From NCBI GenBank assembly GCA_964633955.1, contig CAZWIA010000001.1, positions 16,820 through 80,819 of the forward strand: a stretch of 64,000 nucleotides of DNA, read 5' to 3'. The stretch comes from an uncultured Candidatus Peribacteria bacterium. Lineage in GTDB: Bacteria; Patescibacteriota; Gracilibacteria; Peribacterales; Peribacteraceae. The position numbers and the translations under genes were made by a program. The notes under the pieces were generated by a model, which was not told the origin of the DNA, ran no database searches, and saw only the letters and a program-made list of their open reading frames with translations. Positions within the stretch are counted from its first letter, which is position 1; the number at the start of each line of letters is the position of its first letter. Below, piece by piece: positions 2,975 through 59,391 of this stretch.

Positions 2975-3709
2975 CTAGGCGTTGACGAGCTCGTCATCCT
3001 CCGCTTCCTCTTCCTCGTCACCGGTCGCCTGCTTGGCCTTGCCGCCCAGCTCCTGCTGGACGGTGGTGAGGAGGAGGGTGATGGACTGCACGGCATCGTC
3101 ATTGGCCGGGATGAACGCCGTGAAGAGATCCGGATCCGCGTTGGAATCGCACACGCCGTAGACGGGGATCTTCAGTTTGGCCGCCTCCATGAGCGCCACG
3201 TTGTCCCGCACGGCGTCCAGGATGAACACCGCGTCCGGCAGCCCTTTCATGCGGGAGACGCCGGCCAGCGCCGCATCCAGCTTGGTGAGCTTCTTGCGCA
3301 GCTCCGTCTGCTCCTTCTTGGTGTACTTCTCCACCTCCCCGGTCTGGAACGAGCGCTGCAGGTCCAAGTAGTACTGCAGGCGGCGCTTGATGGTGGACCA
3401 GTTGGTGAGGAGCCCCGGGATCCACTTCTTGGTCACCATGGGCTGGTTGAGGCTTGCGGCCACGGACTCAATGAGCGGGATGCTCTGCTGCTTGGTGGAG
3501 ACGAACAGGATGGTCTTGCCTTCCGTCTGGAGCTTCTTGAGCGCGGCAATGGCTTCCTCCAGCCGCTTGCGCGTCTCTGAGAGGTCAAAGATGTGGATGC
3601 CCCTGCGGACGCCGTAGAGGTACGGCGCCATCTTGGGGTTCCACTTCTCCTTGCGGTGGCCAAAGTGCACGGCGTGGGCCAGGAGATCTTTTTCCGAGGG
3701 GATAGGCAT
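2975..3709 (-). CDS. rpsB: 30S ribosomal protein S2
   Basis: LLAHAVHFGHRKEKWNPKMAPYLYGVRRGIHIFDL is the S2 signature region. It has an acidic C-terminal tail. Confidence 0.95.
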   Translation of the reverse strand: MPIPSEKDLLAHAVHFGHRKEKWNPKMAPYLYGVRRGIHIFDLSETRKRLEEAIAALKKLQTEGKTILFVSTKQQSIPLIESVAASLNQPMVTKKWIPGLLTNWSTIKRRLQYYLDLQRSFQTGEVEKYTKKEQTELRKKLTKLDAALAGVSRMKGLPDAVFILDAVRDNVALMEAAKLKIPVYGVCDSNADPDLFTAFIPANDDAVQSITLLLTTVQQELGGKAKQATGDEEEEAEDDELVNA

Positions 3710-6781: not shown

Positions 6782-6868
6782 AGTGGTCAGCGGGTAGGGG
6801 TCAGTGGTCAGAACGAGAAGGGGAGGTCAGTGGTGAGACTGGCCACTGATCACTGACCTCTGACCACT
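6782..6868. repeat. Imperfect palindrome of GGTCAGTGG words in a divergent intergenic region
   Basis: agtggtcag...ggtcagtggtcag...gaggtcagtggtgagactggcc pairs with ggccactgatcactgacctctgaccact. Confidence 0.5.
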
Positions 6869-9974: not shown

Positions 9975-10112
9975 GGCTGAAACGGAATAAACGGTAAAAA
10001 GGGAATAAACGGTGAAAAGGGTCAAAAGGGAAAACAGCAATCCCTTCTTGCCCCTTCATCCCTTTTCACCCTTTTGGCCCTTTCGTCCCTTTTCACCCTT
10101 ATTGCCTTTCCG
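9975..10112. repeat. Long imperfect palindrome of AAACGGTRAAAAGGG words between convergent genes
   Basis: aaacggtgaaaagggtcaaaagggaaaa pairs with cccttttcacccttttggccctttcg. Confidence 0.5.
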
Positions 10113-10328
10113 TCACATGTTCGAATAAAACTGCCGCTTCCGGTTCTTCTGGCGGTACTCCTCCCGCTTCAGGGCGCGCAGGCGCTCCAGGCGCCGGGTG
10201 AGGGGCTTCTTGTAGTGGCCGCGCTCACGGAGCAGCTTGATGAGGCCGGTCTTCTGGACCTGCTTCTTGAACCGCTGCTGGAGGCGGTCATTGCTCTCGT
10301 CCTTTCCTTTCACGGCGTAGATGGCCAT
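10113..10328 (-). CDS. rpsU: 30S ribosomal protein S21
   Basis: From the internal Met: MAIYAVKGKDESNDRLQQRFKKQVQKTGLIKLLRERGHYKKPLTRRLERLRALKREE. The upstream part of the listed 109-aa ORF looks non-coding. Confidence 0.85.
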   Translation of the reverse strand: MAIYAVKGKDESNDRLQQRFKKQVQKTGLIKLLRERGHYKKPLTRRLERLRALKREEYRQKNRKRQFYSNM

Positions 10329-10588: not shown

Positions 10589-11302
10589 ATGATGAAGAAT
10601 TTTCTGAAACTCTCCAAGAAGACGGTGGACGCCGGCGAGCGGAAGCTCGCCAAGTACATCACGGCGGACCGGTACTTGGCCATGCTGGCGGCGGACGACG
10701 CTGCCATGCAGCGGCTCGCTGCCGCGTGGCCGGAGGCGCCGGTCACCGCCACCAAGGGCACCGCCCTGATGTACGACGCCATCAGCGTCTGCCGGCTCCT
10801 GGGCCTTCCTACCATGGATGCCGGTCCGCCGCCCGCCGCCCGGCGGGACGAGATCATGCTGTACTACCCCGGCTTGTCCCTCCCACAGCTGCGGGATAAC
10901 AAGGCCGTCCGCAGCCGGAATCTCATGCTAATCCAGAACTGGTACGAGCGGCACGCCTGGGGGCGGGAGGGCTTGGAGCTGGGCTACTATGGCGTCCGGC
11001 TGCCTATCCCAGGCTCCAGCAGCCGCGACACCGCGGAGCAGGCGCAGCTCCTGCGCGATGAAGAGCGGGCCCTGCCGGTGTGCATTGGAGCGACGCTGCT
11101 GCTGGTCCACGCGTTGGCCACCTGGCAGGACGGCACGTTCCAGGATCTCCTCCGGAACGATTGGGTCCGATGCCTAGAACAGACGTCCCCTGGCGTCCGT
11201 GCCGGTCTGACGTTCGGCTCGGAGGGTCTGTACGTGGACGTCTACTGGAGTGGCTACCGCGGCTCCAGCCTCTGGGGCGGCTCTGCCCGGAAGGCTTCCT
11301 GA
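10589..11302 (+). CDS. DGR variable (target) protein; C-terminal 38 codons are the VR
   Basis: ATG at 10589 is preceded by ggaggag (the listed ORF starts at TTG 10508). No signal peptide. The C-terminus ...GLYVDVYWSGYRGSSLWGGSARKAS overlaps the VR. Confidence 0.8.
   Translation: MMKNFLKLSKKTVDAGERKLAKYITADRYLAMLAADDAAMQRLAAAWPEAPVTATKGTALMYDAISVCRLLGLPTMDAGPPPAARRDEIMLYYPGLSLPQLRDNKAVRSRNLMLIQNWYERHAWGREGLELGYYGVRLPIPGSSSRDTAEQAQLLRDEERALPVCIGATLLLVHALATWQDGTFQDLLRNDWVRCLEQTSPGVRAGLTFGSEGLYVDVYWSGYRGSSLWGGSARKAS
11176..11290 (+). repeat. DGR variable repeat (VR)
   Basis: 115 bp, with 100/115 identical to TR. All 15 differences fall at TR adenines. Confidence 0.9.
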
Positions 11303-11353
11303 CCTTGATGTTCGGACCCTTGAATTCTTTGAATTCTCGGGCTTGATCTTTGA

Positions 11354-11390
11354 CCGCTTCGTGACCCTCGTCACGGGGCGGTTTTCTTTG
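11354..11390 (+). terminator. Hairpin plus T-tract downstream of VR (terminator and/or DGR target-recognition hairpin)
   Basis: ccgcttcgtgac-cctc-gtcacggggcgg (12-bp stem with 2 G:U pairs, 4-nt loop), followed by ttttctttg. Confidence 0.6.
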
Positions 11391-11649
11391 TGAACGTCTG
11401 GCACTATGCTCATCACGCATTCTGCTCATGTAGCGGCAATCACGGTTTCCGCTCGCCGGATGCTGCTCTCTCCACACTCATCGGAATCCGCGGATCCACG
11501 GAGATGCGGAGCGTATGACGGAGAAGCATCAAGGAGAAGGAAGTCCGTGCCCATTCCTGGCGGAGGTGCTGCAAGGCTACTCCCGCAAACAATTCAGCGG
11601 AAAGATCCGTATGGTTCAATCCGCAGTGATCCCGGACGGGAACAGGCGC

Positions 11650-11764
11650 AGAACAGACGTCCCCTGACAACCGTGCCGATCTGACGTTCAACTCGGAGGG
11701 TCTGAACGTGAACGACAACTGGAGTGACAACCGCAACTCCAACCTCTGGGGCGGCTCTGCCCGG
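11650..11764 (+). repeat. DGR template repeat (TR)
   Basis: Read in the VR frame it has 8 AAC codons (..DNRADLTFNSEGLNVNDNWSDNRNSNLWGGSAR). The 3' 20 nt (tctggggcggctctgcccgg, TR 11745-11764 / VR 11271-11290) are identical to VR. Confidence 0.9.
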
Positions 11765-11774
11765 CACTTCCTTC

Positions 11775-12122
11775 TCATTCTTTCACTGACTTCATCCACC
11801 CTCCAAGCATCCGTCCAATCTCATCGATGCTCTGCTGCAACTGTACGGATTTCCGCAGATCGATCGCTCTGGTGTCCTTGGACAGCCGCAGGAGGAGACG
11901 CAGCAGGTTAAGCCTGGCGCTGACCCGCTCCAGGTGCGGCATCTTCTGGCTTCTTAGGAGTTGGCTCGCGAGCAGGATGCCTTCAAGGATATCGAGAATC
12001 AGATTCTCCACTTTCTGCCAGAGCGTGTACCGGTCGGCCTTGGGGATGAGGCCACGCAGGCCGTGGACCGTCTTGTACAGCTCATATGCCTTCTGGAGAA
12101 TGGGGATATCAGGTGTCTTCAT
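11775..12122 (-). CDS. avd: Avd-like (accessory variability determinant / four-helix-bundle) protein, 115 aa
   Basis: Small, basic and helical. C-terminal SIDEIGRMLGGWMKSVKE and LNLLRLLLRL resemble what I recall of bAvd. It sits between TR and RT but on the opposite strand. Confidence 0.65.
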   Translation of the reverse strand: MKTPDIPILQKAYELYKTVHGLRGLIPKADRYTLWQKVENLILDILEGILLASQLLRSQKMPHLERVSARLNLLRLLLRLSKDTRAIDLRKSVQLQQSIDEIGRMLGGWMKSVKE

Positions 12123-13031
12123 ATGAAAGTGCATGAGGATATCTTCAGCCGGATCATCTCGCCAGAGAACCTTTTCAGCGCTTGGGAGGAGTTTCGCAAA
12201 GGCAAGCAGGCACGGAAGGACGTTCGGCTGTTCGAATGGCAGCTGGAGCCGAATCTGTTTGCGCTCCATCACGAGTTGCGGACCGGAACATACCGTCATG
12301 GTCCGTACAGCGCCTTCACGATCCACGATCCCAAGCGGCGGCGCATCCACAAAGCGGCGGTCAGAGACCGGATCCTGCACCATGCCGTCTTCTCCGTAAT
12401 CAATCCCATCTGGGAGCCGGCGTTCATTGCGCACTCATTCTCTTGCCGGAAGGGCAAGGGGACGCACCGCGGTGTGGACGCGCTGGAGCGGATGCTCCGT
12501 CGGGTAAGCCGCAACTATACGCGGCCCTGCTTTGCGCTGAAGTGTGATGTTCACCAGTTCTTCGCGTCTGTGGACCACGGGATTCTCCTGAAGATTCTGG
12601 GGCGCCGCATCAAGGACCCGAACGTCCTGAGCCTGCTCACGGAGATTATCGGTAGCTTTTCCAGCACATCGATAGGGAAGGGCGTACCTATCGGCAATCT
12701 CACGTCACAACTGTTCGCGAACGTCTATCTCCATGAGTTCGACCAGTTCATCAAGCACCATCTGCGCGTGTGCCACTATGTCCGCTACACGGATGACTTT
12801 GTGGTCGCAAGTGAGGATGAAACCTGGCTTGCATCGTTGATTCCGCTCATCCGGTCGTTTCTCCAAGAGACACTCCGGCTGGACTTGCACCCCCATAAGA
12901 TAGGTATCCGCAAGGAGCGGCAGGGCATCGATTTCCTGGGATACGTCCTGCTCCCGCGCCATCGCGTCCTGCGCACCCGCACAAAGCGCCGCATGGTAAA
13001 AAAATTGAGAGAGAGAGAGAGAGCGTGGTGA
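12123..13031 (+). CDS. DGR reverse transcriptase (C-terminus displaced into another frame, 13033-13152)
   Basis: Motifs PIGNLTSQLFANVYL and YVRYTDDFVV (YxDD). Probable start is ATG 12123; the listed ORF start at 11961 is antisense to avd. Confidence 0.9.
   Translation: MKVHEDIFSRIISPENLFSAWEEFRKGKQARKDVRLFEWQLEPNLFALHHELRTGTYRHGPYSAFTIHDPKRRRIHKAAVRDRILHHAVFSVINPIWEPAFIAHSFSCRKGKGTHRGVDALERMLRRVSRNYTRPCFALKCDVHQFFASVDHGILLKILGRRIKDPNVLSLLTEIIGSFSSTSIGKGVPIGNLTSQLFANVYLHEFDQFIKHHLRVCHYVRYTDDFVVASEDETWLASLIPLIRSFLQETLRLDLHPHKIGIRKERQGIDFLGYVLLPRHRVLRTRTKRRMVKKLRERERAW
13007..13022 (+). repeat. (GA)8 dinucleotide tract preceded by A7 (12998-13004) at the RT frameshift point
   Basis: Read directly: aaaaaaattgagagagagagagagagc. 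Confidence 0.95.
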
Positions 13032-13228
13032 CGGCTTGTTCAATCAGGCCTTCCAGGCGTACTTGGGTGTCCTCTCACACGCGGACGCCTACCGGCTGAC
13101 GCAGGATCTCCGGAACCAGTATGGGTTTTTGGCGCTTCAGGACAAGGAATAGTACGGGCATCCGGTCTGTCTGCCTTCAGGCAGGACTTCCGTTCCTGCC
13201 CATTGATCCGGTCCGCATCCCCCAGTAG

Positions 13229-15283
<2,055 letters not shown>

Positions 15284-38170: not shown

Positions 38171-41100
38171 ATGGACAAGCCCTACAGCCCCCGGGAGATA
38201 GAGCCCAAGTGGCAGCGGAAGTGGGAGGAAGCCGGCGTCTTCCGCGTTGACCTGGAAAAGGCGAAGGATCCCTTTTACCTGCTGGTCATGTTCCCGTACC
38301 CCAGCGGCGCGCAGCTCCATGTGGGGCACTGGTTCCAGTACTCGCTGCCAGACAGCTACGGCCGCTTCCTGAAGATGCGCGGCAGAGAGGTATTTCACCC
38401 TATGGGATTTGACGCCTTTGGCCTGCCGGCGGAGAACTACGCCATCAAGACCGGCGTGCCGCCCGCGGTGAGCACAGCGCAGAACGTGGAGAAGATGATC
38501 GACCAGTACAGGAAGATGGGCGTGATGTACCCGTGGGAGTACCTGCTCAATACCAGCGAGCCCCAGTACTACCGCTGGACGCAGTGGCTGTTTCTGCAGA
38601 TGTACGGCGCGGGCCTGGCCTACAAGAAGCTGGGCAACGTGAACTGGTGTCCTAAGGACCAGACAGTCCTAGCCAACGAGCAGGTGCTAGACGGCGCGTG
38701 CGAGCGGTGCGGCACCCAGGTGGTCCAGAAGGCGCTCTCCCAGTGGTACTGGCGGATCACCGCGTATGCCGAGCAGCTGCTGAACGACATGGACGGCCTG
38801 GACTGGCCGGAGCGTACGCGCCTCATGCAGAAGAACTGGATTGGAAAGAGCGAGGGGGCGGAGGTGGTGTTTGAAGTTTGTCCAGGGTTTGTTGGTAGGC
38901 AGGGAATGGATATCGCATGGACAGGGTTAACTGAGGCAGGCATGCGAACAGTGCATCTCATTTTTTCACCCCAGCATCGTAACCGTCTGTTTGAAGAGCT
39001 GTCTGAGGCGACCGAATTACTGAGAATTCTGAAGAGCGTAGCAGAGGGGCATGGCATAGCGTTGCATGAAATTGCTGTCATGCCGGAGCATGTGCATTTG
39101 CTCGTGAGTTTCGATGCCAAGCGGCATCTGGAGAAAGATATTGTGAAAAAATTGAAAGGCTCCAGTGCGCGTGAATTTCTCCGCCGCCGTCGCACTCCGG
39201 GATTTGTTCCGAGTGGCCAACATTTGGGTGGTACCCAACGTTTGGTTAACCAACATTTGGGTAGTTTGGTTAGCCCCCGAATTAATTCGGGGGCTAACCA
39301 AACGGGCATGGCTAACCATAACCAAACGGACCTGGCCGCAGCAGATGCGGCGGAGAATCTGGGTCCCTGGGATGACATAGTTAGCCCCCGAATTAATTCG
39401 GGGGCTAACCAAACGGGCATGGCTAACCATAACCAAACGGACCTGGCCGCAGCAGATGCGGCGGAGAATCTGGGTCCCTGGGATGACATAGAACATCTCT
39501 GGGGGGAGAAAAAGCACTTCAAGGAAATTGAGAACGATGCCCAATTCCAAGCAACCCTGAACTACATCCGCAGTAACCCCAAGGAAGCCGGCCTGGATCC
39601 TGCCGGCCGCACCCTCTCAGAGCTGCCGGAGACCGTCACCGTCTTCACCACCCGGCCGGACACGCTCTTTGGGGCCACGTACCTGGTGCTGGCACCGGAG
39701 CACCCGCTGGTGGATGCCATCACCACGCCTGACCGCGCGGACGCCGTGAACGCGTACAAGGCGGAGACCAAGAAGAAGACGGAGCTCATGCGCCAGGAGA
39801 GCCGGGAGAAGACGGGGGAGTTCACCGGCGCGTACGCGATCAATCCCGCAAACGGAGAGCAGATCCCCGTGTGGATTGCGGACTACGTGCTCATGAACTA
39901 CGGCACCGGCGCCATCATGGCCGTCCCGGCGCATGATGAGCGGGATTTTGATTTTTCAATCAAGTATAACATAGAACGCAGGTGTGTGATCGATCCGGAT
40001 CTATCATCAACAGACGCAACGTTCGACGTAATCTATCGCGGAGGTGGATCTATCGCATTTGATGTAAACGAGACGGGAAGTTCAGTGATTCCGAAGGCAG
40101 CGGAGCTGAAGGCAGCAATTGTAGATGCAAGATTGGGATGGAAAGGTGAAGGAACACTGATCAATTCGGATTTTCTCAATGGTCTTGATGTGAGTGCGGC
40201 CAAGCAGGCCATGACCGACTGGCTGGAGCAGGAGGGCAAGGGGAGGAAGGTGGTGAACTACCGCCTCCGTGACTGGCTCGTCAGCCGCCAGCGGTACTGG
40301 GGCGCGCCCATTCCCATCGTCTACGATCCGGACGGCAACCCGCATCCGGTTCCTGAAGAGCACCTGCCGTGGCTGCTGCCCACGGATGTGGAGTTCCTGC
40401 CCACGGGCGAATCCCCGCTCCGGCAATCTAGGGAGTTCCTGGAACGGACGGAGCGGATCTTTGGCACAGGCTGGACGCCGGAGTATGACACCATGGATAC
40501 GTTCGTATGTTCCAGCTTCTACTATCTCCGGTTCCTGATGAGTGGTCAGGGATCAGTGGTCAGTGGTCAGAATCATGAGGAAAAAAAACTCACCACTCAC
40601 CACTCACCACTGACCACTTCTCCGGGCGATCAATTCGTCAACCTGGAACTTGAGAAGAAGTTCCTCCCCGTAGATCTCTACATTGGCGGGCCGGAGCATG
40701 CCACCATGCACCTCATCTACGCGCGGTTTGTCATGAAGGCACTCCGAGACCTGGGGCACGTCACTCATGCGGAGCCGTTTCAGCGGCTGGTCCACCAGGG
40801 GCTCATCACCAACCAGGGCGCCAAGATGAGCAAGAGCAAAGGAAACGTGGTGAGTCCGGATGACTACGTGGCGCGGTACGGATCGGACGTGTTCCGCATG
40901 TTCCTCATGTTCATGGGGCCGTTCACGGACGGCGGAGACTGGTCGGATACGGGCATCCGCGGGATCGACCGGTTCACGCAGCGCGCGTGGAAGCTGCTCA
41001 CGGAGAAGGTGATGGACGATGAAGAGGCGCCGCAGGTGCGGCAGGCGCTCCATGCCGCCATCAAGCGGGTCACGGAGAGCATTGACCGCCTGCAGTTCAA

Positions 41101-42199: not shown

Positions 42200-43672
42200 A
42201 TGACGGCTTCCCATCCCTTTGACCGCTATGCCGCTTGGATGGACCTGGGGCTCCTCAGGGAGTACTCCGCCCGGCCGCTTAGGAAGTGCGTGCGGGTGAA
42301 TACGCTGAAAGGATCGACCGATGCCTTCCGCGCCTGGGCGGCGGAGCGAGAGTGGAAGCTCACGCCGGTGCCGTGGGCGCCGGAGGGGCTCTGGATCGAT
42401 CGTCCTGTGGCAAGCCCAGAACAGGCTCCGTTGGATGGACCAAAACGCGAAGCTCTAGGCCGCGATCTCCTCCACCTGCTGGGCCACTTCTACATGCAGG
42501 AGGCGGCGTCCATGCTGCCCCCGGCGCTCTTGGATCCGCAGCCTGGGGAGATGGTTTTGGACATGAGCGCCGCACCGGGAAGCAAGACCACGCAGATGGC
42601 GGCCATGATGCGCAATACGGGAGTCATTGTGGCCAATGATGTCCAGGAGAAGCGCCTCTGGACGCTGAAGGCCGCCCAGCACCGGGCGGGCGCGCTGAAC
42701 GTAGTGGTGACCAAGAAGGTGGGGCAGTGGTTTGGCCGCCACATGACGGAGCGCTTTGACCGCGTGCTGTGCGACGCGCCATGCACGGCGCAGGGGACGT
42801 GCCGGAAGGATACGGACGCGCTCCGGTACTGTTCGCCGGATAATATCGCCAAGATGGCGCGGCTCCAGAAGGAGCTCTTGGAAGCCGCCGTCCACGCGGC
42901 CAAGGTGGGCGGGCGCATCGTCTACTCCACCTGCACACTCACGCCGGAGGAGAATGAGGGAGTCATTGCATGGGCGCTGGAGAGGTTCGAAGGAAAGGTG
43001 GAGGCGGTAGATCCGCGATCGAATGTGGAATATCGAATGTCGAATATCGATAGGGCTATTGAAGATTCCCAAGTTGTCCAGAAGTCCCTCGATATTCGCC
43101 ATTCGATATTCGATATTCCAGCCGTCCGGCTGTGGCCGCAGACGTACGACACGGAGGGCTTCTTCTGCGCGGTGTTGCGGAAGACCGCTCGCACCCGCGA
43201 TCCCATGCTGCTGGACGCCGTGCCGTCCCAGGAGCTGCCGCTGGCTCCTAAGCATCAGAAGGAGATCCTGCAGGGGATCGAGCACGCGTTCGGCGCGTCT
43301 CTTGTCCATGAGGGCGAGCGACTGATGCAGCGCGGCGATGTCCTCCTGCTCGCTACGGAATCGGCGGTCCAGTTCCCGCTGCCGGTGCAGGACTACGCGC
43401 TGGGCATCCCGTTTGCCAAGCGGCTCAAAGACGGCCGCATCCGGCTGGACCATGAAGCGGTGACGCTCCGCGGCCAAGAGGCGACCAGGTCCGTGATCAA
43501 TCTCTCCGAGTCCGACCTGGCGCAGCTCCTAGACGGCAGGGACATCACGTGCGATCCCGCGCTGCGCGGCGACATGATCCTGCGCTACCGCGGGATCCCG
43601 GTCGGCCTGGGCCTGGCCAAAGAGGGGAGCCTGAAAAATAACCTGCCGCGCTGGGTGGTGCAGCGGGCGTGA
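42200..43672 (+). CDS. NOL1/NOP2/Sun-family rRNA (cytosine-C5) methyltransferase (RsmF/RsmB-like)
   Basis: YMQEAASMLPP; DMSAAPGSKTTQ; FDRVLCDAPCTAQGTCRKD; IVYSTCTLTPEENEGVI. Confidence 0.85.
   Translation: MTASHPFDRYAAWMDLGLLREYSARPLRKCVRVNTLKGSTDAFRAWAAEREWKLTPVPWAPEGLWIDRPVASPEQAPLDGPKREALGRDLLHLLGHFYMQEAASMLPPALLDPQPGEMVLDMSAAPGSKTTQMAAMMRNTGVIVANDVQEKRLWTLKAAQHRAGALNVVVTKKVGQWFGRHMTERFDRVLCDAPCTAQGTCRKDTDALRYCSPDNIAKMARLQKELLEAAVHAAKVGGRIVYSTCTLTPEENEGVIAWALERFEGKVEAVDPRSNVEYRMSNIDRAIEDSQVVQKSLDIRHSIFDIPAVRLWPQTYDTEGFFCAVLRKTARTRDPMLLDAVPSQELPLAPKHQKEILQGIEHAFGASLVHEGERLMQRGDVLLLATESAVQFPLPVQDYALGIPFAKRLKDGRIRLDHEAVTLRGQEATRSVINLSESDLAQLLDGRDITCDPALRGDMILRYRGIPVGLGLAKEGSLKNNLPRWVVQRA
43026..43120 (+). 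repeat. AT-rich GAATATCGA-word palindrome embedded in the methyltransferase CDS
   Basis: tggaatatcgaatgtcgaatatcga pairs with tcgatattcgccattcgatattcgatattcca. It encodes VEYRMSNIDRAIEDSQVVQKSLDIRHSIFDIP. Confidence 0.7.
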
Positions 43673-59244: not shown

Positions 59245-59391
59245 GCGTTCGTCGATGATGCGACTGGGGTACAATGGCCAAATCCCAAGCACCAAATCCC
59301 AAATAAGTTCCAAACCAAAAACTAAAAACCATAAACCAAAAACTTCCGAATCCCCTCTCGACCAATCCCCTACTCGCATTCACTCGAATTG

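Follow-up and report, generated by a model that had tools for sequence, protein, structure and literature searches.

A length-variable GA tract in the DGR reverse transcriptase gene of a Peribacteria bacterium and its probable role as a slipped-strand switch

A reverse transcriptase (RT) gene of a diversity-generating retroelement (DGR) that is interrupted inside a dinucleotide repeat may be a dead gene, an error of assembly or an intact gene in the off position of a switch. The question is raised by the DNA of an uncultured Candidatus Peribacteria bacterium analyzed here (the window, a stretch of 64 kb to which all positions refer), in which the RT ORF ends directly after a run of eight GA units and the next frame continues with what resembles the missing C-terminus. 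A sequence-only reading of the window had proposed that the gain of one GA unit would repair the gene and that the tract could switch mutagenic homing on and off by slipped-strand phase variation, with recent inactivation or an assembly error as alternatives.

The DGR cassette and its interrupted RT gene

The DGR is complete and consists of a target gene with its variable repeat (VR), a template repeat (TR), the accessory gene avd and the RT gene. The target (variable-protein) gene was located on the forward strand at 10592..11302 and encodes a protein of 236 aa; its 3' end carries VR. Its exact product (P0122) comes from the same 81-kb NCBI contig; the ORF as read from a TTG start was absent from the protein collection in an exact look-up, and none of the Pfam families matched the target protein. 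VR (11176..11290, forward strand, inside ORF 10592..11302) and TR (11650..11764, forward strand) form a direct repeat of 115 nt with 87% identity. VR has substitutions at 15 of the 28 TR adenines, these VR sites running from 11193 to 11268. Since every difference between the two copies (15 of 15 mismatches) coincides with an adenine in the second one, the first copy was assigned as VR and the second as TR. A G+C-rich hairpin of 14 pairs with a T-run (11352..11383, forward strand) is found 3' of the target gene and VR; it is terminator-like and represents a candidate terminator or a candidate post-VR hairpin as in some DGRs.

The avd gene (11775..12122, reverse strand) encodes 115 aa matching PF22296 (bAvd, E = 4e-17). 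It is divergent from the RT gene, the two start codons abutting. The RT carries PIGNLTSQLFANVY, the DGR-type motif PIGNLTSQ (IGxxxSQ type), and PF00078 (RVT_1), and shows the features of the DGR clade, namely a bRT-like NTE, fingers, palm and thumb without extra domains. Its closest homologues were found in Peregrinibacteria and Peribacteria MAGs. The next gene after that for the RT is gyrB, at 13241, and the G+C content of the window is 62.7%.

The interruption lies in a stretch for which the sequence-only reading had given the composition A7-TT-(GA)8, and the letters of 12998-13023 (AAAAAAA TT GAGAGAGAGAGAGAGAG), read directly, match it: an A7 run (12998-13004), TT (13005-13006) between the two repeats, and a length-variable tract (GA)8G (13007-13023), all on the forward strand. 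Within the last, (GA)8 occupies 13007-13022 and is followed by a G at 13023. The tract encodes R296-R300, where the first thumb helix of the RT ends. It is a perfect non-triplet repeat inside the RT ORF, of a length sufficient for slippage, and the sole dinucleotide array detected by TRF in the 64-kb window. In a regular-expression scan of the same DNA it was again the sole dinucleotide array of at least six units, and just one (GC)5 was seen besides. For a 16-nt GA pattern with no more than two mismatches, 0.13 occurrences would be expected, based upon dinucleotide-preserving shuffles. AGA is the rarest Arg codon of the window (six other genes use it for only 2 of their 170 Arg residues) and is used three times in a row by the tract; codon preference therefore does not account for the repeat.

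Translation confirmed the two frames. The zero-frame RT ORF of the (GA)8 allele (12123..13031, forward strand; protein P0001, with PF00078) ends in RRMVKKLRERERAW, the last residues being KKLRERERAW, with a TGA stop at 13029-13031. Its product of 302 aa, the proposed OFF form, comprises the NTE, fingers, palm and only the first thumb helix. The remainder of the RT coding sequence (13024..13152, forward strand) is in the +1 frame; it codes for the second and third thumb helices, the invariant motif YLGVLSHA included. This frame opens at 13009, ends in a stop codon (13150-13152) and encodes ERERERGDGLFNQAFQAYLGVLSHADAYRLTQDLRNQYGFLALQDKE. The peptide reported earlier for it was right apart from its last nine residues, given as GFWRFRTRN; the true end is NQYGFLALQDKE.

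Tract lengths of 4 to 13 units were simulated. The 3' remainder was joined to the ORF at 6, 9 and 12 GA units only, giving single ORFs of 341, 343 and 345 aa, respectively, and every other length gave a truncated RT. One added unit is thus sufficient for repair, as had been predicted, and a natural allele with nine units exists in run SRR8893624 (see below). The A7 run encodes part of VKK and is the same in both alleles. It had been included in the proposed switch site, but simulated runs of A5 to A9 restored a full-length ORF in no case, because the +1 frame has a TGA at 13006-13008. The A7 run was therefore rejected as a repair site and lies outside the switch.

That the downstream frame encodes the C-terminus of the RT, as proposed earlier from a motif typical of this region, holds on alignment. 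The conceptual (GA)9 fusion of 343 aa was aligned end to end with RTs of 340-350 aa, over 97-100% of the length and with 66-70% identity. Columns Y314, L315, G316, V317 and H320 are invariant among the aligned homologues, and all five are encoded by the downstream frame. Against the RT of Bordetella phage (bRT; 8ub7_A, 328 aa), residues 2-336 of the fused protein were aligned with residues 3-325 by phmmer (E = 3e-50), the part from the downstream frame falling on bRT 292-325. An AlphaFold model of the RT (pLDDT 83) gave TM values of 0.87/0.91 on 8ub7_A in Foldseek. The thumb of the model is composed of three helices (285-300, 306-319 and 324-340), the tract coding for the end of the first (R296-R302 in the model). 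Based on this model, the 302-aa product is predicted to be without helices 306-319 and 324-340. In the homologue alignment the thumb varies most just past the tract, where the window protein has 5 aa fewer. The thumb of bRT touches the template:primer duplex and is encircled by a "Thumb Ring" RNA, both of which are required for cDNA synthesis (bioRxiv 10.1101/2023.10.23.563531). With two modeled thumb helices lost, and by analogy with the thumb of bRT, the truncated RT would be inactive.

Length alleles at this locus and in related cassettes

The 302-aa protein P0001 was found as an exact match on the 81-kb NCBI contig and on Logan contig SRR8893623_31747, an independent assembly which is the same as the window throughout the overlap, (GA)8 included. 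An exact look-up of the Avd protein, which is identical on both Logan contigs, yielded contig SRR8893624_348887 from a sister run. This contig has (GA)9 and encodes an intact RT of 343 aa. Over ~2060 nt the two alleles differ twice, by one GA unit and by a C-to-A SNP at window position 11546. The 302- and 343-aa RTs share one 90% cluster, with no third variant on record, and an exact look-up of GyrB for further samples of the organism gave none on record. The tract is accordingly a real, naturally polymorphic repeat, and the window allele truncates the DGR RT. The alleles at this locus are assembly consensus sequences from the two samples that hold the organism, and as these are also one SNP apart the 8- and 9-unit forms could be two strains and not the outcome of rapid switching.

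Both Logan contigs start within VR, at 11262 and 11263, directly past two A-derived positions of VR, 11261 and 11262. A read population heterogeneous at these sites would produce such breaks, but they are only a hint. A homology search with the target protein for VR variants returned the protein itself as the sole match in the protein collection, and the contig breaks are therefore the only sign of VR heterogeneity in the window organism.

The recurrence of such tracts was examined in 160 related RT loci of candidate-phyla-radiation (CPR) bacteria, 80 from GTDB representative genomes and 80 from JGI metagenomes. At least one locus is in both sets (L051 = L131); no tract-bearing locus is duplicated. 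Fifteen dinucleotide arrays of at least six units were identified, and all fifteen are inside DGR cassettes; the remaining ~627 kb of flanks of the 160 loci contained none. The (AG)5 arrays of L163 and L164, which lie in unrelated ORFs, were counted as background. Eight arrays are within RT ORFs, in the variable loop between EIIxSF and GIPIGNLTSQ: L029 (GA)8, L053 (GA)10, L060 (AG)6, L066 (GA)15, L069 (AG)9, L077 (GA)10, L134 (GA)25 and L154 (AG)10. The L066 tract looks real, but was excluded from the ON/OFF evidence because it comes from a long-read MAG with other homopolymer frameshifts. The other seven arrays are located at RT ends, the avd 3' end or the avd-RT intergenic region. Two are at the RT 3' end or just past it (L032 (GA)11 and L037 (GA)9), two at the avd 3' end adjoining TR (L005 (GA)10 and L061 (GA)13) and three in the avd-RT intergenic region or at the avd 5' end (L063 (CT)10, L075 (GT)6 and L150 (GT)8). 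The eight RTs with loop tracts have a mutual identity of only 50-64% and are interleaved with tract-less relatives, and the site of the tract within the loop varies, which points to several separate origins. At the exact site of the window, a GA tract was seen in none of the 120 homologues listed and none of the 160 related loci. In the comparison of orthologues suggested in the sequence-only reading, the site itself was thus unmatched, but GA tracts of ON and OFF length recurred elsewhere in related DGR cassettes.

Alleles differing in GA-unit number were identified in four further lineages. In three of them the RT is toggled between intact and truncated forms, and in the fourth the end of Avd is moved; in three of the four the unit number is the only difference over roughly 1-4 kb. 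In the L069 lineage, (AG)9 is ON while (AG)8 and (AG)10 are OFF in two different frames, with no other differences in ~940-990 nt. In the L077 lineage, (GA)10 (ON) and (GA)11 (OFF) show no other differences in ~1037 nt, and a relative carries (GA)25 in frame. In the avd tail of a Peribacteraceae lineage, (GA)14 gives a 135-aa Avd ending just past the tract and (GA)13 gives read-through to 237 aa; this pair, on contigs of 54,530 and 54,528 nt, is otherwise identical over 4071 nt. In related Avd proteins the C-terminus is formed by (RE)2 to (RE)5. Clusters of related RT proteins likewise contain intact forms together with forms diverging exactly within an (RE)n stretch.

The fourth lineage, from Berkelbacteria, was sampled from JGI metagenomes (among them the series 3300007964 to 3300008095 and 3300025811) and NCBI MAGs, the CG-prefixed names of the MAGs presumably referring to Crystal Geyser. 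A purine tract of 13 nt (5 contigs) gives an RT of 333 aa (ON). A tract of 15 nt (8 contigs) is OFF, with a product of 198 aa and a separate C-terminal ORF, e.g. PIR27449.1 and PIR27450.1, and a tract of 17 nt (1 contig) is OFF with 212 aa. The 198-aa OFF product is present on nine contigs, and all eight contigs read (8/8) had the 15-nt tract. L094 (ON) is the same as L086 and L088 (OFF) at all other variable sites in ~1500 nt, and L093 and L085 are one SNP apart. When tract state is set against two flanking SNPs, all four combinations are present. This fits recurrent length change; recombination or chimeric metagenome consensus could also give these combinations. TR is nearly constant, with three contigs one base off the reference TR, and VR occurs in at least 4 versions with 17-25 differences from TR, 17-23 of them at TR adenines, a heterogeneity that is a sign of ongoing mutagenic homing in this population. 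VR type A was found with an ON allele (L092) and with OFF alleles (L084, L088 and L096), and VR type C with an ON allele (L095) and with OFF alleles (L086 and L090). As the same VR type accompanies both ON and OFF RTs, the OFF state is no dead end in the Berkelbacteria population.

The proposed switch and alternative readings

Taken with the variable GA runs of relatives, the intact 9-unit allele of the sister run makes the window tract look like a slippage switch for hypermutation. Both lines of evidence support the phase-variation reading first put forward, as did each of the checks proposed with it that could be run, and (GA)8 is probably a slipped-strand contingency switch gating mutagenic homing. 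Replication slippage would gain or lose GA units in the thumb-coding part of the RT gene. Alleles of 6, 9 or 12 units would produce the full RT of the 343-aa type (ON), and other unit numbers would lead to a stop 2 to ~24 codons past the tract, with two of the three thumb helices gone (OFF). As adenine-mutagenised cDNA comes from the RT alone, the state of the tract would gate mutagenic homing from TR to VR in the target gene. The majority of cells would then have a fixed variable protein, and a shifting minority would be able to diversify it. Switching would presumably be frequent and reversible within the lineage, and the tract would be maintained by selection.

A broader proposal, to which we give an even chance, is that CPR bacteria have repeatedly installed unstable GA tracts in their DGR cassettes as a general, heritable and reversible second-order switch of hypermutation, ON in a minority of cells. 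The sites would be the RT fingers loop, thumb and C-terminal tail, the Avd C-terminal tail by TR, and the avd-RT intergenic region. Such a switch would explain many "broken" DGR RT genes in metagenomes. GA codes for Arg/Glu in any possible frame, and in-frame expansion is therefore benign, giving merely a longer charged surface segment; this property may explain the recurrence of the GA unit.

The rival that best withstands these data, although unlikely, is a one-off inactivating slippage in a decaying DGR, the repeat being an incidental low-complexity RERERE stretch and not a maintained switch. It would agree with the lack of a tract at the window's site in any relative, with the position of the tract next to the most variable region of the thumb, where the window protein is 5 aa shorter, and with the two samples of the organism being one SNP apart as well as one GA unit. 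Ordinary frameshifts do occur in related RTs; that of L151 is at the same protein position and was rejected as a case of the same type, since it is due to an extra C in a CCC run. Decay is opposed by the intact state of the remaining RT, avd, TR and VR and by the ON allele of the sister sample. The tract is moreover built from a codon (AGA) otherwise nearly absent in the genome, and polymorphic GA tracts are found in the DGR cassettes of at least four further lineages, the flanks of which have none. In the Berkelbacteria population, OFF and ON alleles occur side by side and VR shows variation at TR adenines. One-off decay does not account for the use of AGA, the recurrence of tracts, the length alleles or the coexistence of ON and OFF forms.

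Very improbable is a recoding mechanism, by which some full-length RT would be made from (GA)8 either through a ribosomal -2 (= +1) slip on the GA repeat, with pausing at the rare AGA codons, or through stutter of RNA polymerase. Judged from the letters, a shift of 2 nt on (GA)n would give perfect codon-anticodon re-pairing for the AGA and GAG tRNAs, and AGA is indeed very rare in the genome. The homologues of 340-350 aa and the ON allele are, however, single ORFs, so that a frameshifted layout is not a conserved trait. The RNA past the tract shows no significant folding (13024-13110 has z = -1.13, with 30 of 200 shuffles as good), and the variation is present at the level of DNA. A -1 frameshift on the heptamer A_AAA_AAA was rejected, because it leads into a frame that lacks homology and meets a stop at 13097-13099. 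It is conceivable that a 2-nt ribosomal slip makes OFF alleles leaky.

Finally, that (GA)8 is a sequencing or assembly artefact and the true length gives one ORF is improbable in the extreme: dinucleotide repeats are error-prone in some technologies and the long-read MAG of L066 has obvious homopolymer frameshifts, but the NCBI contig and the Logan SRR8893623 assembly agree on (GA)8 (though both could derive from one read set), the existing (GA)9 allele of SRR8893624 makes a consensus error very unlikely, and for other lineages, differences of ±1 unit are seen repeatedly in many independent metagenome assemblies of the Illumina era.

Relation to known systems

The proposed contingency switch resembles the SSR loci of Neisseria, Haemophilus and Campylobacter, phasevarion methyltransferases included, in having a non-triplet repeat within an ORF where a change in unit number leads to a full-length or truncated product, and in the natural coexistence of alleles that differ only in unit number. 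It differs from them in that the gated gene encodes a targeted-hypermutation polymerase and neither a surface structure nor a restriction-modification enzyme, that the hosts are uncultured CPR bacteria, and that the repeat unit, GA, reads as Arg/Glu in every frame. The general properties of SSR contingency loci are described in PMC3315296, PMC3546556 and PMC11868660.

A second parallel concerns the control of mutation itself. The short tandem repeats of Salmonella mutL have reportedly been regarded as a repeat-mediated mutator switch. In both cases an unstable repeat would reversibly toggle a mutation-related function and so provide second-order control of evolvability. Switches of the mutL type alter the mutation rate of the whole genome, whereas the tract in the window DGR would gate the adenine-specific diversification of one protein.

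The literature was searched for DGRs in combination with phase variation, SSRs, frameshifts or dinucleotides, and no relevant paper was found within the scope of the search, outside of which most subscription journals lie. A search for the accessions of the two sequencing runs likewise gave no paper. The window tract belongs to a wider pattern among CPR DGR cassettes, of which no description was found in the literature searched. The novelty lies in the target of the switch (the DGR polymerase, and Avd in relatives) and in the host group; the mechanism is classic slipped-strand phase variation and the components are those of a classic DGR. We know of no earlier report of SSR phase variation in CPR bacteria.

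To our knowledge, DGRs are the only system in nature by which prokaryotes hypermutate proteins in a targeted way. If the proposed switch is real, a slippage tract in RT or avd would be a simple answer, at the population level, to how cells limit the cost of a DGR and time its diversification, with diversification bet-hedged, heritable and reversible instead of constitutive. Where a DGR RT gene in a MAG is split or truncated, as in the PIR27449.1 and PIR27450.1 pair, it should be checked for a repeat before it is scored as dead or misassembled. The state of a DGR could also be read from the length of the tract across a metagenomic time series, in which the relation between RT state and VR turnover becomes testable.

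With respect to its components, the window DGR is like that of Bordetella phage BPP-1 (bRT-Avd-TR RNA; PDB 8ub7), the two having the same parts, an RT fold that corresponds from end to end and adenine-specific substitutions. The bRT of BPP-1 is without a repeat tract at the aligned position. The arrangement of the genes also differs from that of BPP-1, the order in the window being target gene, TR, avd (reverse strand) and RT, with avd divergent from the RT gene and abutting it.

Organization of the avd/RT junction

The divergently oriented avd (- strand) and reverse transcriptase (RT, + strand) genes of the window are separated by zero intergenic nucleotides, their start codons adjoining as CAT|ATG (12120-12125). 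A divergent, overlapping layout of avd and RT was also found in the Berkelbacteria loci. The lack of intergenic space in the window implies that each promoter must lie inside the opposite gene, or that RT must be read from a transcript running through TR, antisense avd and RT. In the Berkelbacteria loci (L084-L096) the DGR is surrounded by genes for a Wzy_C protein (O-antigen polymerase-like) and for glycosyltransferases, and this setting hints that the diversified protein works at the cell surface.

GA tracts and frameshifts in related loci

In the closest Peribacteraceae relatives, and not in the window, a GA tract was identified at the 3' end of avd (L061:1068, L181:3377 and L005:1081). Two alleles are otherwise identical over 4071 nt, Avd being a protein of 135 aa with (GA)14 vs a read-through product of 237 aa with (GA)13. 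The tract, which is on the strand opposite TR, is approximately 20 nt away from where TR ends; on the strand of the TR RNA it is a (UC)n run shortly 3' of TR. This is the same place as that of the priming spacer, 3' of TR, in the RNA of BPP-1, and by this analogy tract length might also influence the DGR RNA of these relatives.

The RT gene of L151 carries a frameshift (L151:2700-2712, approximately aa 295) at a protein position matching the break in the window RT. It was rejected as a repeat-tract case: a CCC run has gained one C, no repeat being involved, and this is either a common type of lesion or an error. In L066, a long-read MAG, a (GA)15 tract is located in the RT loop (L066:3059). 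Two more frameshifts occur in A-runs near the thumb (3430-3460) and are typical of homopolymer errors, so the state of this RT is untrustworthy.

Differences between contigs of the window organism

Two Logan contigs, independent of each other and from two runs (L001/L002 and L003), start at 11262-11263, directly past the A-derived VR positions 11261 and 11262, as expected if the reads are heterogeneous at these sites. The sole substitution between the (GA)8 and (GA)9 contigs is C to A at 11546, within the spacer that separates TR from the target gene.

Other repeats in the window

Inverted pairs of imperfect tandem arrays with units of 7 or 9 nt were identified in intergenic regions at 2022-2101, 6782-6868, 9980-10114, 40537-40618, 43018-43118 and 59278-59343. 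Examples are ACTGACC x4 opposite AGTGGTC x4, and CCCTTxxxx-type units opposite AAACGGAAT-type units. Such pairs would fold as long intergenic hairpins made of repeats. A 111-nt unit, which holds its own inverted repeat (GTTAGCCCCCGAATTAATTCGGGGGCTAAC), is present in perfect tandem duplication at 39269-39491 (2.0 copies, 100% match). A 93-nt coding repeat (1251-1549; approximately 3.2 copies, 68% match) translates to a 31-aa module rich in Cys and Asp.
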